DNA of 64,000 nt from Amoebidium appalachense (Eukaryota > Protista > Ichthyosporea). Positions 1 through 63,960 of the stretch are shown one piece after another. Location of the stretch: assembly GCA_963693365.1 (NCBI GenBank), contig CAVNZM010000017.1, forward strand, positions 4,702,708 through 4,766,707, read 5' to 3'. The stretch's first letter is position 1; each line of letters opens with the position of its first letter. Position numbers and translations under genes: made by a program. A model generated the notes under the pieces. It ran no database searches. It saw only the letters and a list, made by a program, of their open reading frames with translations, and had not been told where the DNA came from.

Positions 1-20
1 TGCGTACTTTCAAACCCCCC

Positions 21-462
21 CAGTCTTCTTTCAGAGGTGTCCTTTCAGGACAGACCACTATGTGGAGACCGCTTTACTTCCATGCAACCGGGCATGGTTG
101 CTCTGTGTCGTGCATCTGTAAGCACATACGCATTTTTCGCTGCACTGCTTTAGTTTGCACACACATCTTTACCGTTTTGCTCACCTTGCTTGCATAAGCA
201 ACCCTGCTCGTCTTTGATTAAGACAGGTTGACCCTCCCAAGTTCAGTTGATGCTGCTGTCTGAGTTGGAGAGTCGTATATACGCAGCTAAGGGGTCGAAA
301 CTCAGACGCAATTGATGACTTGGGCCCTCCCTGAGGATGGGCTCTGCTTATGACGCATACTGTGCGCATGGCTGATGTTGCATACTTGAATGCGCCTTTG
401 CATGTGTCCTGCACCATGCTTCTCATCGTGTATATGTACTTCGTACCGTGGTCCGCATTCAA
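21..462 (+). mobile_element. Dispersed structured non-coding repeat, subfamily A (SINE/LINE-3'UTR-like), ending GCATTCAA + poly(C)
   Basis: Near-identical to the reverse complement of 25803-26202; its 3' part also matches 3112-3259. Internal stems: CATAAGCA 193-200/TGCTTATG 345-352, CCCAAG 236-241/CTTGGG 319-324, GTCTGAGTT 258-266/AACTCAGAC 299-307. C-runs on both sides. Confidence 0.75.
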
Positions 463-726
463 CCCCCCCCCCCTCCCCCTTCTTCCTGTACCGAGTATCG
501 AATCTCTTCAATGAAAGTCGATACACATCTGAGAATGTTTCAGTTAAGACATCCAAAAGCACGTTGAAAGACACTGCACCTCTATAGCAAAAAGGTAGAA
601 AGCACCGGCTTGCTACCTCTGCCCAACCTGCGTGCGAAAGAATGTATATTATGAAGATGTTTTCCCTACACCCCACTCGGTACGTGACACACAATGCTAA
701 TGCTGGACAGAGATTTGGGTGCCTGG

Positions 727-1684: not shown

Positions 1685-3752
1685 CTCCCCCCTTTCCCAT
1701 TCCCCCGGCCCCTTTTAACTTTACTGTGTGAGATTGTACTTCATACCGAGTGCGCATCTTAACCCTTCCCCCCGGGCTTTTGTTTGCACAGCCGGCCCAG
1801 ATCCGTCAGTTCAGGCTACACCCCCAGAGCAGCCCAAAGCCAATTGGGGTGCGCTGGTTGACAAGAAAAGGCGCTGGGATGAGGCCATTGGAACACCCAA
1901 ACATGAACATGCACAGAAGGACGGTAGTAGCCAGCTCCTTGGCGGGCGCTCCTACGGCAAGAACTATGTCAATAGGTTCCAGGTAAAATCTGTAACACTG
2001 ATTTTCCGGAAAGTTCTAGGTTTTCTGTATCCAGATAGACTACGCAGAGTGCAATTTTGCTCCTTCCCCCCCTCGCCTCCTCCCCCCCCCCTTCCCCCAA
2101 AGCGTCTTCCTTCAAGCCCCCCCCCCCTCCCCCCCCCTCCCCTCCCCACCCCACCCCCCCCTTTCCCTTTACTCCTGAGCGATAGAGGGATATAGTCATG
2201 CGGGGCACTTCCTGCTTCCGGTGCCCCAAATTGGAGGGTTTACTTCTTCTCTTAACAGCAGCAAAAACGCTGATACGGGCATGAATACGAAGATGAAAAG
2301 GGTTAGTGGCCGGCACGGGGGGAGGGGGAGGGGGGGGGGGGGGGGGGGGGGGGGAGAGAGAGAGAGAGAGGGGGGGGGGGGGGGGGGGGAGCTGGATGGG
2401 AGAGGGTGCTTTTTAGCTACAGAAGGCAGGCGGGCATGTGTGGGGAGTTTGGTAAAATGAGTGGCTCTTCATCTTCGGGGGGTAAGAAGGGGGAAGGGGG
2501 GGGGGGGGGGGGGGGGGGGGAAGGGGTAGAAAGGTTGGGAACTAGGAGTGTACAGGGTTTATAACTTTTGTCGGGAAGAGAAGAGGGGCCGGTGTGTGTG
2601 TGTGTGTGTGTGTGTGGGGCGGGGGGAGGGGGGGAGGGGGGGGGAGGGGGGGGGGGGGGGGGGGGCAGCAAGTCATTGGTATTATGGGGTTTGTTGAGGT
2701 TGTGTTTTTTGCAGTTTCAAGGGTGAAAGGCTGCGTGGGGTGGACTGTTTTTTTTTTGTTTTTTTTTGTTTATCTATGACTGACTACATCTATGGCTGCA
2801 GGTATGTGTGGACGGATAGTTAGGAAAAGTGGTGGTGGTGGTGGTGGTACTCGTGTTCAACCGGCGGCGGGAGGGCTGGGGAGGGGGTGGTGGTGTATGT
2901 TTTCTGATTTCTCCTATTTCAGGACAACCGGCCCCCGGGTGTTGGTCCAGGGGGTGTAATGGACGGAATTAGGTGTGGGGGTTGGTGGTCACGTGCCGGA
3001 GATTATCGAGAGACGGGCCACCACAGGCCTTATGAGGGCAGCAATATGGCCATAATTGTGTCTGTGGCTATAAATAGCACGTAGTTTACCCCCCCCCCCC
3101 CTCTCTCTCCCCTTGGGCCCTCCCTGAGGATTTGCCCTGCCTATGACGAATACTGTGCGCATTGCTGATATTGCATACTTGAATGTTTTCCTTTGCATGT
3201 GCCCTGCACCATGCCTCTCATCGTGTATATGTACTTCGTACCGTGTTCCGCATTCGAAACCCCCTCTCTCTCTGCTCCCACCCCCCTCCCCCTTCCCCCC
3301 CCCCCCCCCCCCCCCCCCCCCTTGGCGGCCCAGCGGGACACAAATGCGCATACTGCCACCACCATCACCCTTCGTTCATATCCCTCCACACACATACATG
3401 CAGCTGTATATATCCTATTGGCATATAGACCTCTTATAAACCCCTGTGAAGATCCTACACTTAAGGATTCCTCCCCCCCCCCCCCCCCCTCCCCGCCCCG
3501 TTTTCCAAGGGTAAAGGAAAGAAAGAAAGAAAACAAAGGAATGTAAAAGGAAGGGGGGGGGGGGGGGGTGGGGGGGGGGGGAGGGGGGGGGGGGGGGGGG
3601 GGGGGGGGGAAAGGAAAGAAAAAGGGAGAAGAAAAAAATGAAAGAATTAACGAAAGAAACAAAGCTTAGGAAGAAAGGAAGCAATAGCTAACTTTGCCCG
3701 TCGTTTACCCCCACCCCCCCCACCCCCCCCCCCTCCACCACCACCATCATCA

Positions 3753-3787
<35 letters not shown>

Positions 3788-6700
3788 AAAGCAAGAAAGA
3801 AAGATAGAACGAAAAGAAAAGAACGAGCAGGCGGGGAGAGGGAGGGAGGGGAGGGGGGGGGGGGGGGGGGGGGGGTAAAGAAACAACGAAAGAAACACAC
3901 TAACATAGGAAGGGAGCAATTGTAACCATTACGCCCTATTCTCTCGTCTTCCTGCTTCCCCTTCCCTTCTCCCCACCCCCCTCCCCCCTCCCTGCCTTTT
4001 TTCCCTGTGTTTAACCCTCTCACTACACACACATAGGAGCACCAGCCACCTCTTCGACCAATCAGAACTGTCTACAGCCGCCGACATTCTCTCTCTCAGC
4101 CAATCCGCTCTCTCCCTTTTTTCCGAACTTTTTTACGGAAACGGCCGTACGCCCGTAAGGTGGACACGCGCATGTTCTCTTCCTTCTTCCTCTCTTCCTT
4201 CGTTTTCTGAATCTTTGGAGGAGATAAGGAGGGCGGGGTTGTGTGTGGTTGCACGAACATGGATGGATGAAAACGAACAGAATAAAGGTGCGTATTTATA
4301 TTTTCTTTCCCTGCCCCTTTCCCCTCCCCTCCCTCCGGCCCCCCTCCCCTCCTCCCCCCCCCCCCCCCCCCCCCCCCCCTTCCCTCCCCCTTCCCCCCCA
4401 CGCAAAAAAAGAAAATAAAGGGGGGGGGGGGACACACACACGCGCGCGCGCGCGCGCGCGCACAGATCATCCCTGTAGCTTCTCTGAGTGTGACGGCATG
4501 TGTCTAAATTAGGCAACGAAGATAACTTTGGGCAACTGTGGACAAAGATGGATTCCTTACTCGTTTAACCACTAAACAAGCGCTTGTTTTTTTTTGTTTT
4601 TTTTTTTTTTTTTTTTTTTTTTTGGTTTAGTACAACTGTGTACAGAGATGGATTCCATACTTAAATAAACCAGAACTTATTCTGTAGATCTTATAACTCT
4701 TGCAAGTCTCTAATACATAGGACTGTTTTTATGCATGAATGTACTCGTTTTGGAGGCAGACACACACAAGCACGTACACAGAGACACAACCTTACCTGGT
4801 GCACACATGTGCACTCATGTACTCGCTTTAAGCTAAGACGAATAAACTATGATACTATCGGTGCTTCATCTCCGTCACTCTCTAACCCCCCCCCCCCCCC
4901 CCTAAACCCCCGCCCCGTCCCCTCCCCCCTCTTCCTCTGCCCCCCCCCCTTCCCCCCCCCCCCCCCCCCCCCCAGGATGCGCCTGCTAATTATGCATACT
5001 CTTTTATGTATGGTTTGCACTCTGCATCGTGTTGTCCGTTGTTTATGTGTACTTCGTGCTTAATGACGCATTCACCCCCCCCCCCCCCCCTCCCCCCGCC
5101 CCCTTTCCCCGTCTGTCATGCATTGTATACTTCACACTCTGTAAAACACCTTTTACCCCCCCCCTCCCCCCCCCCCCCCCCCCATCCTCTAACACTTGTT
5201 CTGCTGTTAGGATCAAGGGCGCCCGTTCTTACTGTGGAAGAGGAGATAGAACTCTCATCTCAACTGCTCCAGCGCGATCTACGTTTATTGGCCAATAGCA
5301 TCGGGGCACGCCCAGTAATCAACCAATCAAACGCAAGCGCCCACAGATCGGGATCACCCTCTACTAACGGCAGCAACCATACGCCGGCGAGCTTTGAACG
5401 AAAATCGAGCTTTGGGGGTTGGAAAGATACAAAGGGAGGGGTTCTTTCGGTTTTGGCGACGAAAATTAGGGAGTGTGGGCAGTATAGCATGGCAAAGAAA
5501 ACACAAACGACAACGAAAAAAATGAGAGGCGGGTCGGGGAGTAGAGGGGGAAGGGGTGCGGGTGGGGGTGCGAGTAGGGGGTCTGTTGGAACTTCGGGGG
5601 GGTCTGATGGGCCGGAGTGGAGGGTGAAATTGCACGAGATGATTGGGTTGTGCCTGGCCCTTGATATGGAGAAGGTGAGCGTCGTGGCAGCAAATTCACC
5701 TCGATTTCTTTCTGCTCCCCAAATTATTCTTTTTCTCTTTGATGACGGGTCTGCTAGTTAGCCTTGATGCCAGCACAATTATTTTGGGCTTTCCTAGTAA
5801 AGAAAGGGGGGAAGGGGGGGAAGGGGAGGAAGGGGGGGGAGGAGGAGGAGGACTTGTATGGATGGGATTTGAGGCAGGAGCAAGGGAGGAGATTTGAAAG
5901 AGAAGATGCACGTTATTCGTGCACGTCCATGCATACACTACACGCTCACACATGTGCACACACGGGGATTTATGTACAGATACATACACACACGCGTGCA
6001 CACACACGCACTCATACACTCCCACTTGTGCACACACGTATACACACAGGCACGTGCACACACACACACACACACACGTATACACACATGCAAACACACA
6101 CATATATATGTATACAGGCAGAGCGCGTCTTCCGCATGCACCGTGCCGTTCTCATCAGCTCCAGCTACAATCCCGACGAGGCAGCATCACTTTTAAAACA
6201 ACCAATCAGCGAACTCTGTTTGCCATACAGTCACGTGCTACAATCACTGGTACTTCAAAAATATATCTCTCTCGAAAGTTTCTCTTCGGAACATGGAGGA
6301 CATGGGGTGTTGAGTGGACAACCTAGCAATGAAATCGAGGTAAATGATTTGTCAGCGAAAGAGGAAGATGTAAACGAGGCCACGGGAGATTTTTTCGAGA
6401 ATAGGGATGGTGCAGACGAATCCGCTGCCCGATCCCCTTCAGCACTCGACTACATGGATTCCACCAACGAAACGAAAGATAACAACGAAATCGAATGTGA
6501 ATCTAATGAGGAGCACGTAGGCCGCTCCGCAAATATTAAAACTAACAACGAGAGCTTATTGGTGATTTCTTTTGACGAGAGTTTCGAGGAGCACGAATCT
6601 GTTTTGGAGACAAAAGAGGAAACGAGGGAATGCACCCTGAATATGACGGGTTTGATCGATTCGGCGGTGGGGATGGAGTCTAACGGGTCGGGGGATGGAC

Positions 6701-8413
6701 GTGCACGTGATTTGCCGGAAGAGGTATACGATATCTACTCCCCCCCCCCCCCCCCCCTTCCTTCCCCCCTTCCACTTCTTTCATTCTTACCCCCTCCCCC
6801 CTCCCCCCCCCCCCCCCCCCCACCCACCCACCCACCCACCGCCCGCTGCCCCCCTAGAGAATGGGCTCTCTACGGTTGGATACTCATTTCTGTGTACTTT
6901 TTATTGCATGTCTGCATAAGGTTGTTCTGTGTGGATTTGTACTTCGTATTGTGTAACCGAAATACCCCCCCCCCCCCCCCCCCCCCCCCCTACCCCCCAC
7001 CCCACCCACCCACCCACCCATCCCCATCCCCCACCCCTCCCCCCGCCCCCGACTTTCATGTTCGTCTCTACACTATCGTTCATTGCCACCACCCTTGTCC
7101 GATATTGAACAGAAAGGAACACACGTTAACGCCCCCGCACAGACGCGCACAAGCACGCACCCGCACCCGCACACGCACACGCACACGCACAAGCACACGC
7201 ACATACACACACGAACACATCGATATCGCGTGAAAACTTTGGAGGGAGAAAAAAAAAAGAAAAAAAAAACCCCACCACTTCATGTCCCCAACACTGACTC
7301 ACCCCCCTCCCCCCTCCCCCCCTTTTTCCCTCAGGAACAAAACCTGTCCGTTCCACCCGTCGCTTCTTCGCCCAAAAAAGAAACCGATTACTCTCCATCG
7401 TCACACAATTCACCCGCCGACCCACAGAGCAACCAACCATCAAACCTCGTTTTCCCCACGCGTTATTCCCTTTTGTCATACGAATCTGCTCTCGCAGCTT
7501 CCGACACGATGGAAACAGCCGTAGGAAGAGGCGACTCATCCGTTGCGTACGAAATTCTACACATGGCGAGTGACGTAATTCTCGACGCGCCTCCGCTAAA
7601 CTCCGCTTTAACCACGTTAAACACTTTGAACGCTTCAATTTTAACCGGCCAATCGCATCGCCACGGGGGTGCGGATGCAATGAGTGTGTGGGTGGTTACT
7701 GTTTTTCGCGGTGTAGGTCTATTGGAGAGGGAGAAGAGATATGGGGAGGCTTTGCACTATTTGGGAATTGTTCTTCGTTGGGCGGGGAGGGTGTTGGAAA
7801 GGGTGGATGGGTGCCCCCCTCCCCCCGGGATCGATCTTGTTCCGTTGCCGTGTGGGTCGGTGTTACTTGGGGAGTTGTGGCTGCGATATGCAAAGTGAGC
7901 ACTCTTTAAACTAACCCCCCCCCCCCCCCCCCTCCCCCCGGCCTTTTTTTTTTTAAAAACCTTTGTGGTTTTTTGCATGCTTTCTTTTTTTCATGGTTGC
8001 TGCTCTCTAATGCATCAAACCCCCCCCCCCCCCCCAACCTCCCCCCAAAGGGCGCTCTCGTAGTTTTTACGCACATTCCGTGTGTGTTCCTCTCATTGCA
8101 TATCCGCCTTGTCTTACCTTTTGAATTTGTACTCCCTGCCGTCTATCGTGAACCTCACACTTAACCCCCCCCCTCCCCCCTTCCCCCCCCCGTCTTCGCC
8201 TTTTCCCCCCAACACCCCTTCTAGGATGGGCTCTGTTATGATGCATATTTTTTGCGCTTTTCAATCTGCATTATGTTGGCCGTAGTGCATGGGCTACTGC
8301 ATATCCTGTAACACCTTCTAACCCCTCCCCCCCCCCCCCCCCCCCCTCCCCTCGCACACACACACACACTTAAACCCCCTCCTCCGACCGCCTTCCCCTC
8401 CCCGCCCTTCAAG

Positions 8414-8453
<40 letters not shown>

Positions 8454-8574
8454 CCCCCATCCCCCTCCCTCTTTTCCCTCTCTCCCCTCCCCCCTCCCCC
8501 CCCTCACCCCTTCCCCCCTCCTCTTTTCTCCCTCCCCCCTCCCCCCCGCCCATCCCCTTTTCCCCTCCCCTCCC

Positions 8575-8641
<67 letters not shown>

Positions 8642-8728
8642 GCCCATCCCCTTTTCCCCTTCCCCGTCCCGCTCTCTCTCTCTCCCCCCCCCCCCCCCCC
8701 GCCCATCCCCTTTTCCCCTCCCCCGTCC

Positions 8729-8767
<39 letters not shown>

Positions 8768-8965
8768 CCCCCTCCCCCCCCCCCCCCCATCCCCTTTTCC
8801 CCTCCCCCCGTCCCGCTCTCTCTCTCTCTCTCTCCCTCACTCTCCCCCCCCCCCCCCCCCCCGCCCATCCCCTTTTCCCCTCCCCCGTCCCGCTCTCTCT
8901 CTCTCTCTCTCTCTCTCCCCCCCCCCCCTCCCCCCGCCCATCCCCTTTTCCCCTCCCCCCGTCCC

Positions 8966-9056
<91 letters not shown>

Positions 9057-9882
9057 CTCCCCCCCCCATTACCCTCTCCCTGCAGGGATCTCGACCATAC
9101 AGGGCGTAGGCGGGAGTCACTGTGTGCATACGAGGCCGGATCACGTGACGTGCACGTGGGTGGAGCGCAGCTGGTGAGCATGCAGAGGGCAATAGTGCGA
9201 CTAAGTGTGCCCCCACTGAGGTGGACTCGGCCGGTGTTCCCACTGCTCGACGGGTATGTAAAATATGTGTATAAAATATAAAAAATAGTAAATGTTACGT
9301 TAAACTTTACATAAGTAAATGTAAAATATAGCTCCCCCCGGCAATAGCGAGGCTCAGTGTGCCCCCACTGAGGTGGACTCGGCCGGTATTCCCACTGCTC
9401 GATATGTAGGCATAAGATATGTTTATAAAGTTAAAGAATTTAAAATGTTAATGGAAAAATATGCAAATGATATCGCAAAATACTTCCCCGTCCTCCTCCC
9501 CCTCCCTCGTCCCTCTACCTGCCTCACCACTCCGCTGATTATGTTGCATTCTACGTTTTGTTGGTGATGTTGTATACTTACATTTTTGCTGATTATGTTC
9601 CATTCTACGTTTTGTTGCTGATGTTGTATACTTACATTTTTGCTGATTATGCTGCATTCTACGTTTTGTTGGTGATGTTACATACTTACATTTTGGCTTT
9701 TGCATGTCATTGCGTGTCCTGTGTCCTGCACCGTGTTTCTCATCGTGTACTTGTATTTCGTACTGAGTTTCACATTCTACTCCCCCCTCCCCCTCCTCTT
9801 GCCCTGGTGTATGCTCTTTTGGCAAGATCTGCAATGTGTTGGCTGGCGTGAACGTGTACTTCACACTCTGGACCGCATTCCG

Positions 9883-9921
<39 letters not shown>

Positions 9922-9955
9922 AACTCCGGGGATTGATGTGGTCTGCTGATGTTGC

Positions 9956-10037
<82 letters not shown>

Positions 10038-10488
10038 GCATGTGTACTGTGTTATCCTTTGCTTTTTTTGATGAATACACGTGCTATTACTGAGCATACC
10101 TGCATTCATGCACGTACTGATATAGTATAAACACACATGCTCTGTATTACTGTCCGTGCCTTCTCATAAACACACACACACACACACACACACCTCGTGC
10201 TATGTATAAATATAAGTGCGCAAAATCGTCTTACACCTTCTATTTATTTATAGAGACGTGCTAATTATAAACACAAATGCAGGTTTAATGAACGGAAGGT
10301 TTGCGGTGTGAGGGTGGATAATGGGTCTGGGGGGACGACGTGGGTGCTTGGTGACGGACGGACGGGGTCGGTGGAGGACGTGGCGCTGTGTTGGTACCTG
10401 GAAAATACAAAACCCCGTAAGTGTTATGGCTTTTTTTTGGTTTTTTTTGTTGGGATTTCCGGGCTTCGATTATCGTTATCGATCTCCT

Positions 10489-10533
<45 letters not shown>

Positions 10534-10653
10534 CTCCCTGATTTGGAAGAAGACCTATGCATATTGGTGGCACTGTGTTGGAACCTGGAAAATACAAGAC
10601 CCTGTAAGTGTTTTTGGGTTATTCGTGACGGAGTTTCTGGTTTCGGTATCGTT

Positions 10654-10691
<38 letters not shown>

Positions 10692-10720
10692 TGTATGTGT
10701 GTGTGTGTGTGTGTGTGGGT

Positions 10721-10751
<31 letters not shown>

Positions 10752-11604
10752 GACAAAGGCTCTTTGTTGGTGTTGTGTTGCTTTTCAAATTAGAGAAACG
10801 GAGAGATGGATGGGTGGGAAGGGGGGGGGGGGGGGGGGGGGGGAGGTAAGGAGCAGAGGGGGAGGAAAAAAGGAGTGGGAAGGAAAAAAGGGTGGATGGT
10901 GTGTGAGTGTGTGTGTTTGGGGGGGGGGGGGGGGGGGGGGGGGGGGTCTGTGTTTCTATGATTTGTTTGACTGGTTGCTGATGAATCATTCTGTTTCAGC
11001 CGTAGGAGTGGATGGGACATGGCGAGGAATCCACGGAGAGAACGGGCCATTTCTAACCCTGTACGCAATATTGCTGTGGGATATACTTTTTCCTGCCAAA
11101 TATCCCGGACCCCCCTACTTTCAGACCCCCCTTCAGGATATGCCTATATGCCTGGCAAAGGGATTGATGCCAGATGGAAAAATGGCGGGGTTGGTTGAGG
11201 AAAGATGTAAGGAATTGAGCGACAAAGAGGGTGGTGTGTGTAGGGCGGTAGCGTTAATTCGTAAAGCGTACGCGAAATTTCTTGGGGTTCAATGTGCGGG
11301 TGTAAATTGGAAAAGAATGACTGAAGATGAGCTGGTTCAGTACGCTATCGGTCTTGGACCCCTCGCTCTAGGGGGAATTTGCAGACTTTTCTCCGAGGGG
11401 TGGGAGCAGTGGATGGGTGGGCTGCCCGATTTGTGCATGTGGGTGGAAGGGAGCGATGTGATTGGGCAAGGCAGAGGGGGGGCGAAGTTGGTGGAGGTGA
11501 AGGGGCCGGGGGATAGGTTGAGTGATAGGCAGATTGCTATGCTGGGGCAGTTGATTAGGTGGGGGGTGGAGGTGGAGGTGTGTTATGTGGTGCTGGCAGA
11601 GTGA
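1108..11604 (+). CDS. FAN1: Fanconi-associated nuclease 1-like protein (VRR-NUC domain), 10 exons
   Basis: Phase-consistent GT-AG exons: 1108-1240, 1792-1982, 2923-2972 (least certain), 4037-4287, 5211-5674, 6118-6723, 7335-7894, 9086-9253, 10283-10416, 11000-11604. FAN1-like motifs: [82 protein letters not shown], and the PD-(D/E)xK core GLPDL...[13 protein letters not shown]. Confidence 0.9.
3112..3259 (+). mobile_element. 5'-truncated subfamily A repeat in a FAN1 intron
   Basis: Aligns to 319-462 (CTTGGGCCCTCCCTGAGGA...GTACTTCGTACCGTG..CGCATTC); flanked by C/CT runs. Confidence 0.75.
4973..5074 (+). mobile_element. 5'-truncated subfamily B repeat in a FAN1 intron
   Basis: Aligns to 17396-17500 (TTATGCATACTCTT..TCTGCATCGTGTT..GTGTACTTCGT..GACGCATTCA + poly-C). 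Confidence 0.7.
6855..6964 (+). mobile_element. Diverged 3' fragment of the poly(C)-terminated repeat superfamily
   Basis: GAATGGGCTCT...TTGCATGTCTGCA...TGTACTTCGTA between C-runs. Confidence 0.5.
8221..8321 (+). mobile_element. Diverged 3' fragment of the poly(C)-terminated repeat superfamily
   Basis: AGGATGGGCTCTGTTATGATGCATA...CTGTAACACCTTCTAA + C-run. Confidence 0.5.
8450..9060. repeat. Compound minisatellite: about 7 units of CGCCCATCCCCTTTTCCCCTCCCCCGTCCCG-(CT)n-(C)n
   Basis: Unit visibly repeated about every 60-90 nt inside FAN1 intron 7. Confidence 0.85.
9341..9402 (+). repeat. Intronic duplicate of the 3' part of FAN1 exon 8
   Basis: GCAATAG..AGTGTGCCCCCACTGAGGTGGACTCGGCCGGT.TTCCCACTGCTCGA copies about 9189-9250. 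Confidence 0.85.
9533..9882 (+). mobile_element. Diverged subfamily A copy containing a 3 x 54-bp tandem repeat, followed by a further 3' fragment (9805-9882)
   Basis: GCTGATTATG recurs at 9534, 9588 and 9642. It is followed by TGTCCTGCACCGTGTTTCTCATCGTGTA..CACATTCTAC, then a second fragment ending GACCGCATTCCG + poly-C. Confidence 0.6.
10565..10618 (+). repeat. Intronic duplicate of the FAN1 exon 9 3' end including its GTAAGT donor
   Basis: GTGGCACTGTGTTGGAACCTGGAAAATACAAGACCCTGTAAGTG copies 10380-10423. Confidence 0.85.
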
Positions 11605-15743: not shown

Positions 15744-19166
<3,423 letters not shown>

Positions 19167-22155: not shown

Positions 22156-23931
22156 GGGGGGAGATAAGTTTTTATGCTCAGAAATTCGGGGAAAGGGGGG
22201 AGCTGGGAGGAGGGGGCGGGGGGAGGGGGGGGGGGGGGGGGGGGGGGGGAGGGGGGAAGAGGAGGGGTAAAGTGTGTAATTTGTTTTTTTTTGACCTTTT
22301 TGTTTTTACTGAATATGATAATGGAAAGGAGGCGAACCGTGGAGGGGGGGGGGGGGGGGAGGGGGGGGGGGACGGATGGAGTGCATCATGATACATAGTC
22401 GAAACAAAGACCACAGTGCAGAGAGACTCATGAAATGTCAAGGGGACGAGAGGGAGGGGGGGGGGGGGGGGGGGGGGGAGGGGGGCAAGGTGAAAGGGGG
22501 GAAGGGGGAGGGGGGGGGGGGGGGGGGGGGGGAGGGAAACCTGGAGGGCGGTGGCAGTGCCGACAGGGACAACCACAAAGTTCTTGCCGGGGGCAACAAA
22601 GGAACCAATGGGAATGTCGAGAACAGAACCTAATTTGTCCGTGTGGCCTGGGTGGTGGGTTGTAATTGGTCAGATATCAGTAATATCAGTAACACATATG
22701 GAGGTGTAGGTGTGCGGGTGTGGGTATAGACACGCATTTGTGCGCGTGCGCGTGCGCGTGCGCGTGCGTGTGCGCGTGTGTGTGACACACTGTGTGTATG
22801 TGTGTGTGTGTGTCTGTGTGTGTGTAGGTGTTTGTGTGTGTACGCACATGTGTATGTGTCTGCGCGCCAGCGTGCGCGCGCACCCATGTGCCACAGTGTG
22901 TGTGCGTGTGTTTGTGTGTCTTTGCGTATGGAGACTCTGCCATAAACCACGTGTGGTGGCATAGTGAAATTATGCCTGTGCACCTTCCCGACCCACTCCA
23001 TTCTTCTCTCCATCCCGTTGTTTTAGGAAACGAGATTTTCCCCTTTTTTTTCGAATTTTTTACAAAAAAAAAAAAAAAAAAGGACAGGGAAGGGTTGCAT
23101 TTCTTTTTTAAAAGATAAAATCCCTAGACCTTGCATTCGAACTATCACCTCTTCAACCCCAGACCTTAACTAAATAGCCGGCCAAAACCGTTCACACAAG
23201 ACGACACCACATTGATAATCATACGTTACGGGAGTTTCGTTTAGGCCGATTTATGAGCCCTTCCCGGTCAGGCCAAAATGCTGTTGGCTGATTTATGAGC
23301 CCTTCCGGGTCAGGCCAAAATGCTGTTTGCTGCGCATCACACCAATCCTAATGAATGAATCTCTTTCGGGTCTGACCCGACTCGGAATCATAAAGAAACC
23401 TTCCTTTAACATCAATCCAAAGCCAATGAACATTGGCCCGGTAGTCCACTAATCTCATGATCCGAGTTGCGCTAAGGCCATGTTCCGAATTTCCAGCAAT
23501 TTTTTATTAAAAAAACGTTCTATTTACAATAAAAAGATTGGCTTTTTCCTTATCTTCATTTGTGTGTGTGTGGGTGTGGGTGGGTGGGTGGGTGGGGGGG
23601 GGGGGGGGGGGGGGGGGGGTGATCTGTCGAAGGCGCGGGGGGAAAGGGGGCGGGGAGGAAAGGGGGGAGGGGGGGGGGAGGGGGGAGGGGGGTGAGTGGC
23701 TTTTTTTGCGTGATTTGGGGGGGAGGGGGGAGGGGGGGGGGGGGGGGGGGGGGGTGGAATGCGTCAAAAAGTACGAAGTACACAAGAACAAACGGATAAC
23801 ACGATGCAGAATGCAAGCCATACATAAAGAGTATGCATAATAAGCAGAGCCCATCCTCAGGGGGGGCCCACGTCATCCACAGTACCCGAGTTTCGACCTA
23901 TTTACCTCGTTAACGAAACCCAACTCAGATC

Positions 23932-25083: not shown

Positions 25084-26732
25084 ATGGGTGGGTGGGTGGG
25101 TGGGTGGGTGGTGGTGGATGTGTGTGTGTGTGTGCGTGTGTGCGCGCGCGCTCGCCCGCACGCGTCAGAATGTGTGTGCGTGTGTGCGTGTGTGCGTGTG
25201 TGCGTGTGTGCGTGTGTGCGTGCGTGTGCACGCGTCAGTGTGTGTGTGCGTGTGTGCGCGTGTGTGCACGCATGTGTGTGTGCGGTTGGGTGGGTGGGTG
25301 GGTGGGTGGCAGGCAGAGTGTGTGTGTGGGGAGAGAATGGGAGGGAGGGAGACGAGGGGAGAGAGGGGGGGGGGGGGGGAGGGGAAGGATGAGGACCTGT
25401 ATATGCAGCAGTAAGCTAGAACCGCTGAGAACGGGCGTGGCCAACTAGCCACATGCAATAAGACTGTGTGATCATAATTGAAGAGAACCAAACCCCCCCC
25501 CCCCATTTTTTTTGCGTGTATGTGTGGGGGGGGGGGGGGGGGGGGGGGGGGGAAGGGGGGGGGGAAGGGGGGGGGGGAAGGGGGGGGGGAAGGGGGGGGG
25601 GGAAGGGGGGGGGGGGAGGGGGGGGGGGGAGGGGGAAGGGGGGGGGGGGGGGGGGGGGTTGTTATTGATTGCCGTCTCGGGGAAGGCTTTCCGTTGGAAG
25701 GTAGACACGGTGGGGCCTTTTTGTAGGTGTGTAGGAGCTAAAGGTCGAAAAGGCACACAAATCGGGCCCCCAGGGGCCCCCCGGGGGGGGAGGGGGGGGG
25801 GGTTTTGAATGCGGAACACGGTATAAAGTACGCATACACGACGAGAAGCATGGTGCAGGACACATGCAAAGGCAAACATTCAAGTATGCAACATCAGCCA
25901 TGTGCACAGTATGCGTCATAAGCAGAGCCCATCCTCAGGGAGGACCCAAGTCATCAATTGCGTCTGAGTTTCGACCCCTTAGCCCGCGTATATACGACAC
26001 TCCAACTCAGACAGCAGCATCAACTGAGCTTGGGCGGGTCAACCCGTCTTGATCAAAGACGAGCAGGGTTGCTTATGCAAGCAAGGTGAGCAAAACGGTG
26101 AAGATGTGTGTGCAAACTAATGCAGTGCAGCGAAAAATGTGTATGTGCTTACAGATGCACGACACAGAGCAACCATGCCCGGTTGCATGGAAGTAAAGCG
26201 GTGGGGGGGGAGGGGGGGGGGGGGGGGGGGGGAGGGGGGGTGGATGGAGAATGGAAAGGGGGGAGGGGATGAATGAGAGTTCAATCCATAACAAAGGGTG
26301 AATGGGGTGGAGACTAAGATTGGTTATTTGGTTGGAGGGGAGGGGGAAAGAGTTGGGGGGGAGGGGGGAGGGGGCGGGGGGGGGGGGGGGGGGGGGGGGA
26401 GGGTTGGATCGCGTTACAGAGTACCGTGCGAAAGGGGGGGGGGGGGAAGGGTGTAGGGGAGGGGTTCATGAATGGAAATTCCAACATGCACATACCGTCA
26501 ACAGTCCGGCGCCAATTCCGATGATATTTGCCACTGGGGTTTTTGCGAGGACCGACCCGTTCAGATGCTCCCCGCTTTCGTTCTTAATGTGGGCACCAAC
26601 CGTCTGGTCCATGTATAAAACAACATCCATCACACTGACGATCCCGGCATAAGCTCCTGTGTCGGTCTCATAGACGGGAAGGGAGAGGATGTGGTGTCTG
26701 TTTTTTTTGTTTTTTTTTTGTTTTTGTTTTTT

Positions 26733-32361: not shown

Positions 32362-32905
32362 CTATGCTACGGAACTGATCGGAACATACGTGAAAGGGGT
32401 AGCGCTACGTGCTGGTGCTGCATTTCTCGCACCAAAAAATACTGTATTCGTTTGCTTCGGTGCAGGCCGGAAAGAAACCACCAATTTTTCTTCTCCGCTT
32501 TGGTAAACGTAGCGTGGAGGACAGTATTCGTTCGTCTTGTAGCATACACAACCTGGGTCAACCCAGAATACGAGATCCTTCGGGAAGCAAACTACGATTT
32601 TTCGCTGCTGAGAATCCACAAATGTCGGCGCTCTGCTGGAGCAACGGGTCGACCACGCGCGAGTGAAAGCGTATACACCTGTTTCCAGAACCACGGAGAG
32701 GTTGGTCTGGGTACCATGAGCGCACGTAAAGGGTTTCCATAGTTTTGACAAGCGCCAATTTGTATTGCCTTCCTTGCTCCTCCGTCAACCCGTTGGCCTG
32801 CACAATTGTGCTGGTCAAAAACTCCGCTGCTGCGACAAACTCGGGAGTAAGTGACAGGGAAGTGGGCTCGTATGGTATCGGTTGCATTCTGATGTTGGGA
32901 GCCAT
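32362..32905 (-). CDS. BTG/Tob (APRO) family protein, single exon, with one apparent frameshift
   Basis: EFVAAAEFL, box A (YVRSWYPDQPLRGSGNRCIR) and DPLLQQSA are in one frame. Box B (PKDLVFWVDPGCVCYK) is in the next frame, implying one extra base near 32580-32602. Confidence 0.85.
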
Positions 32906-32995
32906 CTTCAAGTGATAGAAAACGGGAAAAAAGAGAAACAAGAATGCATGGAAAACTACAAAGCGAGACGGGCCTGACGGGGGCTTGCTTTTGCC

Positions 32996-33003
32996 CTTTT
33001 ATA
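32996..33003 (-). promoter_or_regulatory. TATA-box-like TATAAAAG upstream of the BTG/Tob gene
   Basis: About 90 nt upstream of the ATG at 32905. Confidence 0.4.
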
Positions 33004-39399: not shown

Positions 39400-40118
39400 T
39401 CATTCCACCCTCTGCTTCTTTCTCCTTGGCTCCTTATCATTGCTCTGAAACGCCGCCAAATCCACCCGATATCTCGTCATGAGTCTATCCGCCTCGCTGA
39501 AATACTTCCTCTTGTCCCCCTTCCCCATAGCCATCCACTCCCTCAACGCAAGCAATTGCAAAATACTATCCTCCAGTAAAGGATTTGCGGAACTCAGCGC
39601 GTATTTGAACAACATGTACGCGTCAGGGGGTTTAACAAGTAGCGTATCCTGTGTTGCCGCACGAGAATCGTTCCCTGAAACGGAATTGTTGTTCTCCCGC
39701 CCGTTTCCGCGCGATGGCGAGGGGGAATCGTTTGTTGGGGAGGGCGGTTGAGGCGAGGTCTTTCCGTTGCGTTTCTTGCCCTTGGGTTTTCCCTGCAGGC
39801 ACAAAAGAGGGGAAAACGTGTTAGTTTTCCGGTGATTTGAACTTTCCTTAAGTGAGTTTGGAAAATTCAGGTGATTTGGCCCCGTGCAGCAACATGGGCT
39901 GGGAGGAGGGATGTGCTGTTTGATAACGACTTGTATGAAGCTGGGATGAGGTGTCGGCACCAGGCCAACAGTACTTCCACCCAAAAAGATACACATGTAA
40001 AAGACGATGTGACAAAACATACATCCGTTATATGTGGAGATGTAACACTTCACCCAACAAGATACACAGCTAGACAACCACGTCACACTCGCACGCACGC
40101 ACACACGCACGCACGCAC

Positions 40119-40168
<50 letters not shown>

Positions 40169-40466
40169 TCTTGCGCACACAACACCACCACTGCTACTCT
40201 TCATTACTCCAATAAAGCTCTGCACTTCCACAATGAAACAAAGAAGCATTAACAGGACTCATTATCGAACAGAGGGTCCTGGTTACAGAAACCGGGGGGG
40301 TGTACGAGGCAAGGGCGAGAAGTTGGAGAGAAGAGGGTAGGGTGGGGAGGGGGGGGGAGGGGGGGTCAATGTGTTAGATGAGTGTGAAGTATACATTCAC
40401 GACTGAAACGCAATGTAGATCTTGCAAAGCACACATACACAGCGCATGTGCAGGAGTGGGGGGGCG

Positions 40467-42254: not shown

Positions 42255-43384
42255 TGCGTGTGTGTGTGTGTGTGCGTGTCTCAAGTATCTCGGAAGTGTG
42301 TGCACTCGGATGTATCTGTACGTGCATGGCTCATGTGTCAACGCCCACCACACTGCCCGTTTGCAGAATACAGAATGTATGTGGGCGTACATGTGTGCGC
42401 ATCCATGTATGTGCTTGCGTGTGACGTGCGCGTGTAAGCGTAAGAGAAAGTGTACGCCCATGCGTCAAGTGTGACATTTCTGTGTGTCAGTTGTGGTACA
42501 GCATGTAATACTATGTATGTGCACGTGTCACATGCATAGAGAGTGCAGGACCGTTTGCACGTGAGTGCTGTACACGGCGCGCTATGCTGGAACACACAAA
42601 TGTGGGCGTGTTGATGTACCAAACGATGGAACATCAAGACGAGTCAAAGTAGCTCTCTAACAATACGGGAGAGTTGGATTCCACTCTCCCTTAACACCCA
42701 GTACATGTAGCAGACGCACACGTGCCACAACATTTGAGAAGCACCTACAAGAACAGAAGAGGACATCCGGTAGTAAAACACGAAAAAAAGAAATAGAAAA
42801 AACACGAATTTGCTGTTACCTTTTGAGCACTCGGGGCAGAAGAACTCAAACGGGTCCGCCTCCGGCGTCTGCAGGCGGCGGTACTTCGTTCTGTCTATCC
42901 CCACGCACTTTCCGTGCGTCCACACACGACAGCGCTCACACTGCACCATATACGGTGTTTCGTCCTCGTACGCCTCCCCACAAACAGGGCACCACTTGTC
43001 CGGATTTACCACTTCCTCCTCTTCCACTCGTTCTTCCTCCTTCGGTTTTTCCTCCGTCACTTTCTTTTGCCCAGCCCTCCCGCCGTTCTCCTTCGATGTG
43101 GGTGTCTTTGGTGTGTTTCCGTTGCTTTCTCCGGTCTTTTTGGCTTGCTGGGAGCGTATTTGGGAGTATGAAGAGCGTCTCTTCGGGCCAGAATTCGAGT
43201 TTTCGGAATGATTTGTCCCTGGAGACACCTTTTTCAACGGTTCGTCGTCACTAAGGCTTCCGGGCTCCACTTTGCTGACAACTGCAACTTCTTCCTTTAC
43301 GTTTTCCCTTCCAGCGTACGCGTGTGTGCGTGCATGTGGATTTCTCAGTGTTTCCCCGAAGGGATTTCCTGTGAAAGTGGCCAT
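39400..43384 (-). CDS. PHD finger + HMG-box chromatin protein
   Basis: Phase-consistent exons 43384-42820, 40940-40840, 40278-40254 (tentative) and 39792-39400. PHD C4HC3 pattern: [30 protein letters not shown] box: [33 protein letters not shown]. Confidence 0.8.
40366..40450 (-). mobile_element. Diverged 3' fragment of the poly(C)-terminated repeat superfamily
   Basis: Minus strand TTTGCAAGATCTACATTG..CGTGAATGTATACTTCACACTC..ACACATTGA + C-run; resembles 9825-9882 and 5111-5156. Confidence 0.5.
41818..42400. repeat. ~290-bp tandem duplication in intron 1 of the PHD-HMG gene
   Basis: GTCTCAAGTATCTCGGAAGTGTGTGCACTCGGATG..CTGCCCGTTTGCAGAA occurs at about 42006 and 42278, each with the same upstream block. 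Confidence 0.85.
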
Positions 43385-45712
43385 TTTTTCTTTGCTGTGT
43401 TGGATTTCAAACACCAGCCGACCCGTGTGGATTTTTGTGGTGCCTGGCGTGCAACCAAACACCAACTACTTCAAATTTGCGCGCGTTTTGCTGATAAGAC
43501 AAAACTGTGTGAGAAAGAAAGGACAGAACACAGAAAGACCTTTCTCAAGTAGAGGAACATAGGGGGGGGGGGGGGGGGGGAAAGAAAGAGAAAGATATAT
43601 CTATTTTCAGTTGTAAGACTCCCGCTGGCTGTGACGAGAGCGCTCAAGAGCATGACAGATATCTGATGACTCAGCGCATATGTGCGTGTGCTCGTGTGTG
43701 TGTCCGATGCAAAGGGCCGTGCCTGGCACAACCAAATTCTCTTTTGATACCTCAGTTTTCAGTATGGCACGATACGACAACTTTGATTCCACTTGCTATG
43801 TGCACACAGATAAAACTTGTAAACTCTTTTGTGCCTATTCATTGATGTGCTTTTAGTGAGAGAGATAATTATAACCGGGAGAAACGGATTTTTGGGTGCA
43901 CTTGCAGTGGGCCGTGCCAGTGACGTTACTCCGCCGAGTCAACGTCCGTTCCGATGTGTGAGATCCGGTTGGCTGAACTTTCACGCCTTCGAAAAGCGGG
44001 ACAAAGTTGATAAGAAAAATGAATGTTTTTGTATGATTCACCTAATACAATGGCAAATAAGTCTCTATTTAGATATAAGTATATATATTTTTGGTACAGA
44101 AGAAAACGTGTAAAGCAGATGTAATAACATGTGATAACACTTCTCACGATCATTTGTACGGTTTATAACGTTAGGACCACCGTGATTGGTTGGAATGTAG
44201 CGGTAATTGGCTTCGGGCCGTACGCCATTTGGTTGGCCCATGAAATATTCGGCACGATAGGAATCCATTGAAGTCATCTGTAAGATTCCTGAATGGCATC
44301 AACATTGATGTATATTGAAACTAAAAGTGTGCATAATACAGTTTTCTACATTTGACTGAACTTTATAAAGCTATGAAAGCATAGTATCAATAAATAAATG
44401 CTTTTTTCAGTAACACGTTGTGCTGCAGTGAGCCAGGTGAACGCTCCCCGCCGCACTCCCACATACATAGCTACGCCTCAGTCGGGATCCAGTTATCGTG
44501 CGCATTCCACGCCCGCTAACCCTGCCGGCACCAACTTAATTGTGACAGCTTCTAGCGATTGGCTCCCAGGATATTATTCACAGTTGCATGACACTCCGGC
44601 TGTTGATTCTCCTTCTATTCAAAAGGTCACGGACGGTTACAGAGTATACAAATAATTGATTACATATATATAAATTCAAATTATTAATGAATTGAGTTTT
44701 AAAGTCACAGCTTATGTGCGTCCTTTGCCGACGGCCTTAATGCACAATACTGCAGTGCACTATCACATTTATCTATCATCATAGTTCAGCTAATCATTTC
44801 TCTTACTTATCATGCATTGTACCTGCCACTTCCCAGTTTGACCCTGCGGATACGCCAACAATTTTAGAACAAGGAAATGCTGTGAAGAAATAAGAGCGCA
44901 GGCTTCAGTAATAGCATAGTCTGTAGCTACATCTTCTTTACTCTTACATATAAGCTGTTTAAAAATTACTTCTTTTTTGATCACTTTCACTTGAATCACG
45001 CTGACGCGTTCACATCTACGCACAGGTCACAGCCTCACATGAACTTCAGAACTTTATTAAAATATGTCAAGGAGACATTGTTGGATTGGATAATAATCAC
45101 TTTTAGAATTAGCCTAAAGGGTGAGCTTTCCACCAATCGTCTCGGCGACTATCATAGCGGTGGGTATATAAAGTGGCGCCTCGTGTCCAGCTCTCGTGGC
45201 CTGCTCGGTCGCGCATCGGTGGGAAAGTTACAGTACAGAGCTCTGCAAATCACTGCATACGGTTAGTGAAGACCCTCAGCCAGGCTAGCTGTGCCAACAA
45301 CAACAACAGTAGAGAGAAAAAACAAACAGAACGAGTTTATACTTATGATGAATATGCTTCGGCTTTGCGAAGGTCATACTGTTATATATTCTGACTAAAA
45401 AATAAAGGTTTCGTCTCGACCGCGCGGACTGTCGCGGACGTTCAGCACGCACACTGTTGAATCCAGAATTGTCAAATTAGTACTTCTGCTGTTTTATGTT
45501 TATACCATTACTAGAATTAGTATATGTTAGTAACATATAGAATTAGTTATGTAGGGTAAAGGGCAGTCATATGTGTGCACATAAATTACAGACAATCCAC
45601 TTGCGTTGGCAAGCAGGGAAGCTTCGTGATGGAAATTCAAAAGAGCCGGGCTCCACGTGCACGTAGCCTACTAGTAGTAGACGGTCACCTCTGAGTGCTG
45701 TCTTCCCGGCGG

Positions 45713-48272: not shown

Positions 48273-48410
48273 GTCGGAATGCGGTATAGGTACGAAGTAC
48301 AACTACGTGGCACAACTCGAAACACGGTGCAGGACATATGCAAAGGCAAGATTCGAATTTCACATCGGCAATGTGTGCAATATGCAACAGAAAGGAAGCC
48401 CACCCTCAGC
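48273..48410 (-). mobile_element. Diverged subfamily A-like 3' fragment
   Basis: Minus strand CTGAGGGTGGGCT..CCTTTGCATATGTCCTGCACCGTGTTTC..GTACTTCGTACC..CCGCATTCCGA + C-run. Confidence 0.6.
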
Positions 48411-48468
48411 TGAAGAAGGGGGAGAGGGGGGGGGAAGGGGGCCCCCGGGGGGGGGGGGGGGGGGGGGG

Positions 48469-48834
48469 TTTGAATGCATCAAAAAGTACGAAGTACACAA
48501 GAACAAACGGACAACACGATGCAGAATGCAAGCCATACCTAAAGAGTATGCATAATAAGCAGAGCCCATCCTCAGGGGGGGCCCACGTCATCCACAGTAC
48601 CCGATTTTCGACCTATTCACCTCGTTAACGAAACCCAACTCAGATACTGTGTCACTTGAACATGGGTAGGTTACCCGTCTTGATCAGAGACGAGCAGGGT
48701 TGCTTATATATGCAGGCAAGGGCAGTGGGAAAGGCCGGGGGTTAAAGTTGCAGCAGTAAGCAGAAGCAAGAAAAATATAGATAGGAACTCAGGAGACGGG
48801 GCTTCTAGGAAGCTCCCCCCGGAGTCCCCCGTCG
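48469..48834 (-). mobile_element. Longest subfamily B copy (may extend to 49379)
   Basis: Reverse complement of 17167-17500, plus extra 5' sequence that closes a GACGGGG/CCCCGTC stem. Lies head-to-tail with the 48273 fragment across a G-run. Confidence 0.8.
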
Positions 48835-49178
48835 CTACCTAAGTCGATACTTCCCTGGCTAACACGCTCACACTATGTAGCTGAAAAGAATTGAGTCCCG
48901 AAGGCCGCAGAATTCGCAATCAGAGGGGAAAATATGATTTGACCCACGCCGCAGGCTGCCACCTACTGAGATGGCTCCTTATTTTTCCTTACACATTCAG
49001 CGAACATTGGACTCTATCGAACCGTCGAGGCGCCCCCGACAGAAAGCATGCACGCGGTCGCGAGAGTGTAAGGAAAAATCGCCCGCCTGCAGCGAACGTA
49101 AAGTTCATCGCAGCGCGTGCACACCGTCAGTACGTGTGAGCGCCGCAGGCTACCACCTACTGAGGCGGTGTCTCCCTT

Positions 49179-49214
<36 letters not shown>

Positions 49215-50149: not shown

Positions 50150-51163
50150 AGGGAGGGAGGGAGGGAGGGAGGGAGGGAGGGAGGGAGGGATAGCGCGGGT
50201 GTCAACGTAATTGACCATGACATGACATGGACCTTGCGGCACTCTTTATTACAAACTTCGTTGCGTACCAGCGGCTTTACAAATGCAAGTGCCAATTCAA
50301 GTTCAGTAAAGGCCTGGTAGCCATTACAACGTAACATTAGGCAATGACAATAATGGGTTCCCGTGGTTTTCGAGCTAATGTTATGTGTTTCCGGCGCCTG
50401 CTCGTAGCGTGTTGATTCTTACAAGCACAAATGCTCTCTATTGCCAAATCTGAGGGGCTTTGGGTTGCTAAAGCCAGCGCAGCTACCAACTTCGCATTTT
50501 CCTTTTCCCTTCGTCTACCCGCCGCTCTAATGTTAACAGCTCACTCTCTTCATCCTCCATGTTGCCCAACTTGTTTTGCGCACGCGCATTCTTGTTTTGT
50601 TTCGGGCGCTTTGCATGCTCCGTGTCAGCAATTTCGAGTTCCTGTGCTTTGCGCTTTTTCGGTGTTTTTTGCCTCGGCTCACTTTCCACGTGTGGCGTCG
50701 CTTCTTGTCTATTTAGGAAGGTGGCATCTTCACCTTCCTTATTTGGCATAATGCTCTTTTTCGAGCCGCCGTTCTTCTTCTGCTCGTTGTGCCAGTGAGG
50801 GGGCATGTGTTTCTTGGAGATGACGAGATTGCTCAACTTGGGGAACCTCTCATCCTTTCCCGGTCTCCCACGGCGCCTTTTGGCTGCTGTTTCGTGTTGG
50901 CCAGTTTCCCCTCCCCTTTTCCTCCCTCCCTCTCTTCCCTCCTGTTCCTGATCCTGTTGCTCTTTCTTTTCCCTTTCCATCGTGCGTGCAATTTCGAGAC
51001 ATTCTTCCTCTTTCTTCAGGTCTAAAGGTCCTTTGGGGTGCAATATTTTCAGCCACTCTATCCTTCTCTGTATCCCCTTTACCGTCAATTCAGACGGAAT
51101 GCACACCGTGTTACCCTTCGTTAACTTCGTTTCGGTACACCACTCAGCGTAGCACGCAGGCAT
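49450..51163 (-). pseudogene. THAP-like domain protein; probable decayed DNA-transposon transposase (ISL2EU/Harbinger- or Kolobok-type)
   Basis: MPACYAEWC..RRIEWLKIL..(charged insert)..LVISKKHMPPHW resembles the THAP C2CH pattern with the third Cys replaced. The frame continues after one-base shifts in A-runs to CNGYQAFTELELALAFVKP. Fragments below 49850 (DSFFILPGFVRG.., IMGWP) weakly resemble HTH_Tnp_4/DDE_Tnp_4 regions but contain stops. Confidence 0.4.
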
Positions 51164-55541: not shown

Positions 55542-62725
<7,184 letters not shown>

Positions 62726-63532: not shown

Positions 63533-63849
63533 CACACACACACAGGTGTTATTGAGGATTAAGCTTAATGGAAGATCACCTACAAAACAATTAGTACCCG
63601 ATTGTTTGAAAAAAATAAAGATTCTGGGAGCCTAGCAAAGATGAACGGGGTGGGAGATACCCCTCGGGGGGGGGGAGAGGGGGGGGGGGGGGGGGGGGGG
63701 GGGGACAGCAGCTTCCCTATACACAATAAAAAGACAAGTTCGAGCACAGCAGATCGTAATTCTGCGGAAGCCTTTTGCTTCGTTACCAATCATCGACAAT
63801 AGGCCGAAAATTTCAATGTGTGATGGTCTGGCAGCATATATAGGTCTCA

Positions 63850-63960
63850 CGTGCTCTCTCTCTGCCACATCCACGTGATGCATTTCTTCACGTGTGCTTT
63901 GCAATCCGCATTGTGTTATCCGTCATGAATACGCACCTTGAACCCTGTAACGCATTCTAA
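63850..63960 (+). mobile_element. Diverged subfamily B 3' fragment
   Basis: GTGTGCTTTGCAATCCGCATTGTGTTATCCGT..CTGTAACGCATTCTAA + C-run. Confidence 0.55.

Follow-up and report, generated by a model that had tools for sequence, protein, structure and literature searches.

At the start of a 64,000-nucleotide (nt) stretch of the Amoebidium appalachense genome (GenBank assembly GCA_963693365.1, contig CAVNZM010000017.1, positions 4,702,708 to 4,766,707 of the forward strand; hereafter the window), a repeated non-coding element carries a conserved RNA fold that is probably a self-cleaving hammerhead with a split core, lying close to the 3' end of what is likely a non-autonomous retroelement of Penelope-like, Naiad/Chlamys type, sitting in poly(C). 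As predicted, it would cut the plus-strand RNA after the GUU at 264-266. With rather less assurance, though still on the favorable side, the fold is proposed as a seventh hammerhead architecture, in which a break between A9 and G10.1 is reclosed by a two-helix clamp; this would be the ribozyme missing from Naiads, interconverting with the published type CSG and present here in very high copy. An earlier note on the same DNA had inferred a selected plus-strand RNA structure near a retroelement 3' end, and was right to do so. It had also concluded that no known family could be assigned, which no longer holds, as the fold contains a full hammerhead core in permuted, split order.

A hammerhead core in split order

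The element occurs in the window as two main subfamilies, A and B, whose copies are numbered as in Table 1. All 13 positions of the hammerhead core, as defined in PMC3088659 (papers are cited here for the passages covered), are present in A1, A2 and B1, which lends substance to the ribozyme that the earlier note had listed among its options, cleavage itself being a prediction. The set C3 U4 G5 A6 N7 G8 A9, G12 A13 A14 A15.1 and U16.1 H17 is complete in A1, A2, B1, B2 and B3. In A1 the boxes are G16.2-U16.1-H17 at 264-266, C11.1-GAAA at 296-300 and C3-A9 at 331-337, followed by a U, and their letters recur in A2, B1 and B3. The core-adjacent pairs (1.1-2.1, 10.1-11.1 and 15.1-16.1) and stems I, II and III stand in register in A1, A2 and B1, with stem lengths of 4/6/8, 4/5/8 and 3/6/12 base pairs (bp), respectively. 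The helix once proposed as a pseudoknot is stem II, its pair G230-C296 (G10.1-C11.1) adjoining the GAAA, and the proposed inner stem, when moved by one pair, is stem III and ends in GUU. Stem I had been overlooked; it joins the bases after H17 with those before C3 (267-270/327-330) and has 4 bp in A and 3 bp in B, the third pair being A-U versus G-C. Motifs described earlier as common to the subfamilies are indeed shared, but had not been recognized as hammerhead core boxes.

Read 5' to 3', the order is a stem II strand, the cleavage block, the GAAA block, and a stem I strand with CUGAGGA-U. This order is non-circular, with the strand broken between A9 and G10.1 and the gap flanked by the helices P1b and P2: three G after U338 pair with 202-204, and are followed by 2 nt, hairpin P2, one or two U, and G230. 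The stem II strand is not found within 0-2 nt of CUGAnGA, so that the fold departs from the contiguity of all six published permutations (CGS, GSC, SCG, SGC, CSG and GCS). Offsets of 0-3 nt after CUGAGGA revealed no helix common to A and B; a wobble-rich match at offset 2 has six pairs in A and only four in B. Type SGC, with stem II downstream of CUGAGGA, was accordingly rejected for want of a pairing common to both subfamilies, and type CSG with the P2 loop as core was rejected because G8 would be C, C3 would mostly be U, and P2 sequesters the loop.

A descriptor written for the split order matched A1, A2 and B1 only on both strands of the 64 kb, as compared with one match in 60 shuffled windows and with one and none in two sets of 20000 shuffled elements; these chance rates are optimistic, since the descriptor was written after the copies had been seen. 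A plain type-CSG descriptor had no match in the window, and a covariance model of the nested part recovered its seven training copies and A3, and nothing else there. Pattern scans gave no match in viral contigs, and in metagenomes 23 of 23 loci were chance matches with no likeness outside the pattern. No Rfam family matched at its gathering score in the window, and none matched at E 10 over 1-480; nested models cannot represent such an order. Three weak matches in 48460-49200 were judged to be chance.

Helices of the fold and their covariation

All five pairings described in the earlier note were found by direct reading of the sequence. Its claim of covariation held for the crossing helix (stem II), the outer stem and the inner stem, but not for the closing stem (194-200/345-351) and small hairpin (207-227), which have the same letters in A and B and thus give no covariation signal. 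At 225 the hairpin of A1 is mismatched; G stands there in the other copies and in the population of the sequencing runs. Between A and B the crossing helix has two two-sided changes and the outer stem one (A-U to U-G), while the inner stem lengthens from 8 bp in A to 13-14 bp in B and has one C-U mismatch among 14 in the copy at 59850. The crossing helix is best counted as 5 bp in A because its sixth pair (235/291) varies in run X1 (A 29% and G 19% of depth). In addition to stem I, a second helix, P1b (202-204/339-341), had been overlooked; it directly follows CUGAGGA-U, and like the closing helix P1 it is alike in A and B, save for one B1 mismatch in P1b.

A structural alignment of the seven copies that overlap the fold, using a 43-pair structure, has 88.3% of its 230 cells paired, versus 29-47% in slid registers. 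Two-sided changes occur in 7 of the 43 pairs, a number equalled by 4 of 500 shuffles in a test in which related sequences can outscore such shuffles. Two of the seven sit in the 3-bp P1b, come from the decayed copies C and X, and are probably misaligned; the remaining five fall in the crossing helix (two), outer stem (one) and inner stem (two). That the functional RNA is the plus strand, as had been proposed, is backed by 25 G-U versus 4 A-C pairs on that strand. Identity between A and B is 78% in the domain, as compared with 47% upstream and 52% downstream. Folding-energy z values (-1.73 for A1, -0.57 for B1) are unremarkable by themselves, and the free minimum-energy fold of B1 is a different structure from the one proposed.

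Both small loops hold palindromes in both subfamilies (214-220 and 274-283 in A, 17282-17288 and 17339-17346 in B); the sequence of the second differs between A and B, and loop-loop dimer contacts could be formed. A C/D box or kink-turn in the internal loop was considered and rejected on direct reading, as neither spacing nor pairs fit.

The repeat element

The window, which is low in complexity with 202 C or G runs of at least 10, contains roughly a dozen repeat pieces, spread over both strands. The pieces have variable 5' starts and a common 3' end consisting of 0-4 A and then a C run, with no poly(A) tail. With piece boundaries set by hand from alignments, 11 of 12 pieces have a C-rich 3' flank (C at 64% or more), and 7 of 12 a C-rich 5' flank (68% or more). 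Subfamily A forms units of about 440 nt, found both singly and head-to-tail: depth over A1 climbs in bin 19-36 and drops after 450 in runs X1, X2 and X20, and in run X11 a loose end ahead of position 9 represents the 3' end of a further unit, giving a head-to-tail join. The A family is very abundant, as 11258 contigs of run X1 and 7685 of run X2 (public runs) fall on window 1-520.

Truncation at the 5' side with a fixed 3' end, along with partial tandem and head-to-tail copies, is the behavior of Penelope-like elements of Naiad/Chlamys type, as is insertion in a simple repeat, which for many Chlamys elements, as here, is (C)n. The poly(C) target, 5' truncation, tandem joins and lack of a poly(A) tail together point to a Penelope-like rather than an R2-like element, and the element is likely a non-autonomous one. 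The 5' truncations of A3, B4, the fragment ending at 48409 and the second part of X begin at or just past the internal C run before CUGAGGA (322-335 and equivalents), which suggests joining to the poly(C) target by microhomology. A tRNA-derived short interspersed element (SINE) was rejected, as A and B boxes were not seen by eye.

Among the other copies, B2 has lost the 10.1-11.1 pair and is likely inactive. Short duplicated tails occur near 9772/9875 and 61838/61881. The 3' tail of a further relative, at 9530-9890, is duplicated internally and has two ends that pass into C runs, and after copy C (59950-60500) imperfect tandem repeats of about 65 nt stand in place of the usual tail. Table 1 collects the helices and copies.

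Table 1. Parts of the predicted fold in copy A1 and copies of the repeat in the window
Feature	Positions	Strand	Remarks
Copy A1	22..461	+	about 440-nt non-coding unit between two C runs; preceded by another unit's 3' end
Closing helix P1 and inner clamp P1b	P1 194-200/345-351; P1b 202-204/339-341	+	7 bp; 3 bp
Hairpin P2	207..227	+	7 bp, 7-nt loop holding a 6-nt palindrome; 1-2 U ahead of stem II
Stem II 5' strand	230..234	+	G230 = G10.1; strand of the formerly proposed pseudoknot
Outer clamp helix	236-243/317-324 (236..324)	+	8 bp; ties far ends of stems II and I
Stem III 5'-side strand	258..266	+	G16.2-U16.1-H17 = GUU 264-266; predicted cut 266/267
Stem I strand after predicted cut	267..270	+	pairs with 327-330
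Linker, stem I strand to stem II strand	271..291	+	21 nt in A, 18 nt in B; palindromic mini-hairpin
Stem II 3' strand, GAAA, stem III 3' strand	292..307	+	292-296 (C296 = C11.1), 297-300, 300-307
Stem I second strand, CUGAGGA, conserved U	327..338	+	327-330, 331-337 (C3-A9), 338
Copy A3	3112..3258	+	3' fragment; begins just ahead of CUGAGGA box
Copy B4	4972..5074	+	3' fragment
Copy B1	17167..17499	+	core complete: G10.1 17297, H17 17332, G12 17360, C3 17394
Copy B3	23758..23930	-	5'-truncated about 9 nt upstream of predicted cut; without stem II 5' strand
Copy A2	25808..26202	-	5'-truncated; core complete: G10.1 26040, H17 26004, G12 25972, C3 25938
Older A-like 3' fragment	48277..48409	-	directly downstream of B2, tandem arrangement
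Copy B2	48470..48806	-	G10.1 to A, C15.2 to A; true 5' end may be further upstream
Copy C	59808..59950	+	stem II 8 bp, stem III 13/14; GAAA altered; no CUGANGA, no stem I
Copy X	61622..61844	+	decayed, C run inside; short duplicated 3' tail after it, ending near 61890
Copy Y	63735..63960	+	decayed relative; 3' tail matches X and B; structured part by eye only

The same order in Naiad elements

Naiads were reported to be without a canonical hammerhead, yet 'core' and 'half-core' motifs (3' ends labelled HHR_core and HHR_half_core) were noted in them (Craig et al. 2021, PMC8557442), the present fold going undescribed. The last 420-600 nt of 19 of the 54 Naiad consensuses in the supplement of that paper, a selection leaning to those flagged as core or half-core, were parsed by eye, with consensus names deduced from the header that comes next and from how entries are ordered in the metadata sheet. 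Eight of the 19 ends show the split order found in the window (Bfor, Chem-3, Amil, Movir-2, Plae, Obim, Ovul and Esco), from a ctenophore, a hydrozoan, a coral, a box jelly, an acanthocephalan and three cephalopods. Lengths of P1b/P2/stem II/clamp/stem III/stem I are 8/6/6/10/11/6 bp in Amil, 8/8/4/8/4/5 in Chem-3, 5/9/5/7/5/4 in Movir-2 and 10/7/5/16/6/2 in Bfor. For Plae, whose upstream part lay outside the sequence shown, stem II/clamp/stem III/stem I are 6/8/5/6 bp; the close relatives Obim and Ovul have 6/5/4/6 bp, and Esco has a mismatch in stem II. The P1b-equivalent helix ranges over 4-10 bp, the 1-nt step from stem II to the clamp recurs, and 0-2 U follow A9. Helix sequences differ among the eight and from the window, with the core and G10.1-C11.1 recurring.

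Three others of the 19 (Naiad_Hpol, Naiad-3_Nbra and Naiad_Smim) read as uninterrupted type-CSG hammerheads with the clamp helix, Naiad_Smim having a U between A9 and G10.1. Relative to CSG, the split form is opened at A9/G10.1 and closed behind stem III. The window element shares with the eight Naiad ends the split order, accessory helices and a position near the 3' end. It differs in being short, non-coding and poly(C)-targeting, whereas Naiads are autonomous, occur in animals and mostly target (TA)n or have no stated preference; in addition, its stem I-II linker is longer and its P1b weaker. Chlamys elements resemble it in other respects: they were described as targeting (C)n, as frequently truncated at the 5' end and as having non-autonomous derivatives (e.g., MRC1) arranged head-to-tail (PMC8557442), and the 3' ends of (C)n-targeting Chlamys consensuses likewise pass via a few A into a C run, although a Chlamys-type reading frame was not found in the window.

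Relation to published hammerheads

The closest published relatives are types CSG and SGC of Eckert et al. 2023 (PMC10085705), which have the same clamp helix and cleaved in vitro; for the SGC type, cleavage required all four helices, and type CSG has so far been reported from two sequences only. With the window fold they share the full core, the block order (cleavage, GAAA, CUGAnGA), a strand that leads from stem I to stem II, and an extra helix tying the other sides of these stems. The difference is that in the window fold the CUGAnGA block is cut at A9/G10.1, leaving the stem II strand 5' and CUGAGGA-U 3', with P1b and P2 bridging them. The published examples came from metatranscriptome, metagenome and RefSeq searches, and in the passages covered retrotransposons are not mentioned.

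Type I and minimal hammerheads in Penelope and Hydra pseudo-long terminal repeats and in non-LTR retrozymes (PMC4209133; bioRxiv 10.64898/2026.07.22.740005) likewise place the core in a Penelope-type repeat, and have in common with the window fold a base between A9 and G10.1, the G10.1-C11.1 pair and tandem units of a few hundred bases; the four pairs at the end of stem III in the window are those of some Hydra motifs. Those motifs are circularly ordered type I with a short stem III, whereas in the pseudoknotted window fold stem III is long and the core strand broken. Neither a split-core hammerhead nor a permuted hammerhead in Penelope-like elements was found in the literature searched, including passages of PMC10085705, PMC13725137, PMC3088659, PMC10162972, PMC4209133 and the retrozyme preprint, with Weinberg 2015, Lunse 2017, subscription papers and the supplements of PMC10085705 lying outside that search; PMC13725137 mentions hammerhead variants with additional helices, citing Weinberg 2015.

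Proposed closing of the core and its difficulties

In the proposed mechanism, stacking of P1b and P2 would place U338 next to the U that precedes G230, allowing the core to close with a side branch at the A9-G10.1 step. This step appears to tolerate insertion, because hammerheads of Penelope-like elements have a conserved extra base there (PMC4209133) and an extra U at the same place raised cleavage 3-4-fold in a viroid hammerhead (PMC3705267). The clamp would be the counterpart of the helix tying stems I and II in the SGC type. In the free fold, the clamp and stem III make up a rod about 25 bp long, the tip of which stems I and II would have to link to its base, with an internal loop of 14 + 9 nt in A and 8 + 4 nt in B. 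In cis, the rod would hinge at this loop, with some fraying in B; alternatively, the tip of one unit may dock on the base of another, in tandem or as a dimer, as would suit tandem transcripts and as with the dimeric hammerheads of Penelope-like elements (PMC4209133). Cleavage would trim read-through and tandem transcripts, which the reverse transcriptase (RT) of an autonomous element could then copy into poly(C). The cut itself would not set the 3' end of the template, because units in the genome show no permutation at this site and no 5' end in the window lies there.

A number of points weigh against a self-cleaving hammerhead of this kind. In the passages covered, PMC10085705 knew of no alignment with more than 1-2 nt between CUGAnGA and its stems, and took the block as uninterruptible. 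Stem I (3-4 bp) and P1b (3 bp) are weak features, and the linker has 18-21 nt versus about 1-7 nt in Naiads. From helix geometry, a zipped rod of about 25 bp together with stems I and II in one molecule would require a sharp bend or fraying. Freeing the core strands would cost 8-11 kcal/mol relative to the free fold; set against a duplex energy of 13-17 kcal/mol for stems I and II (loop costs excluded), this makes the active fold reachable but not dominant, from which we infer that cleavage would be slow or conditional. Copies B2, X and Y are damaged, and copy C retains stems II and III with changes but has no core. None of the 5' ends in the window is at the predicted cut 266/267; a loose-end consensus of run X2 (43 records, agreement 0.68) joins a C run a few bases from that cut, and was not seen in X1. 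Pfam gave no match to an RT or GIY-YIG endonuclease in 136 unmasked window frames of at least 70 amino acids (aa), although the lack of an N-terminal GIY-YIG/CxC/RT frame is expected of a non-autonomous copy. No parse was possible in the 420-600 nt available for 8 of the 19 Naiad ends (Dst-3, Adux, Parc, CGi, Mcor, Omin, Chem-1 and Movir-1), and the fold was seen by eye in none of 11 Chlamys 3' ends (last 600 nt). Finally, no variants at 5% or above occur in 230-234, 258-270, 291-307 or 329-341 in four sequencing runs, but this is weak evidence of core conservation, as only about 30 of 440 places vary at all; a scarcity of common core variants would partly be expected of so young a repeat family.

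Other interpretations

The most serious rival, although unlikely, is a hammerhead-derived fold that no longer cleaves and is kept as an RT recognition or packaging structure, or as a dimerization element acting through its palindromic loops. The palindromes in both small loops of A and B would suit such a role, as would the shortness of stem I and P1b and the survival of stems II and III in copy C without the core, although copy C may be merely decayed. Genomic units begin near 22 and end at the poly(C) junction rather than at the cut, and metazoan hammerheads of Penelope-like elements cleave poorly in vitro (PMC4209133). Set against this, A and B agree fully in the 13 core positions, in G10.1-C11.1 and in the U that follows A9, whereas their flanks are only about 50% alike, and by eye the same core is found in eight Naiad families from five animal groups.

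It is far less probable that the domain is an ordinary structured 3' untranslated region of a non-LTR element of the long or short interspersed type, with an R2-like RT-binding signal and coincidental hammerhead boxes, as the earlier note had entertained. While 5' truncation with a fixed 3' end would suit any target-primed reverse transcription, and Rfam gave no match, the full arrangement arises by chance in at most 1 of 20000 shuffled elements and recurs, by eye, in known Penelope-like elements; the 0-4 A before the C run, the lack of a poly(A) tail and the tandem joins also disfavor it.

A variant of the hepatitis delta virus (HDV) ribozyme is highly improbable. The segment before the stem II 3' strand resembles the J4/2-P2 end of HDV ribozymes, and in A a C-N-A-A step does come ahead of the crossing helix, following on a small hairpin and GG; however, the would-be catalytic C is U in B, C and X, the nested double pseudoknot (P1, P2, P3, P1.1, P4 and the J4/2 catalytic C) could be built on neither strand, with P3, L3 and P1 nowhere in the required order on direct reading, no HDV-type Rfam model matched 1-480 at E 10, and Naiad versions are without this linker. 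Least credible is an OMEGA/Fanzor-like guide scaffold at a DNA transposon end, also once suggested, which a structured RNA with a crossing helix near an element end might recall, but against which stand the hammerhead core, the nesting of 5'-truncated copies on a single constant 3' end in poly(C), which indicates an RNA intermediate, and the failure to find terminal inverted repeats, other DNA-transposon ends, or a transposase or TnpB/Fanzor match in the window.

Other features of the window

An intron-split gene on the plus strand at about 5200-11600 ends in a VRR-NUC domain (FAN1-like nuclease) and has element fragments in its introns. A 388-aa frame at 18000-19166 (plus strand) has many Cys/His repeats of 'C-x-H-G' type, with no Pfam match in the pieces scanned. 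On the minus strand are a BTG-family gene over two frames (32365-32998), a weak HMG box (39400-40200), and a 257-aa frame at 50483-51256 with no Pfam match, whose start resembles a THAP finger. A PHD finger is encoded at 42644-43465 (minus strand), with no link to the repeat seen; PHD fingers are accessory domains of some Chlamys elements (PMC8557442). At 48906-48990 (minus strand), Rfam gave a weak match (16.1 bits, E 0.24) to the CPEB3 HDV-like ribozyme, with P1.1 and L3 misfitting by eye; the match lies on the strand of B2, 100 nt upstream of its shared start, and a 25-nt stretch of it recurs near 49140-49165.

Significance

If the split-core hammerhead is borne out, the apparent lack of a hammerhead in Naiads would be explained by the split order, and a pseudoknotted ribozyme invisible to standard searches would be revealed. 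Type CSG, known from two sequences, would become a widespread genomic motif. With one 175-nt transcript and a prediction exact to the base, the role of hammerheads in Penelope-like elements can be put to the test, and a core dependent on an inserted helical clamp would offer a natural site for regulation and for ribozyme engineering.
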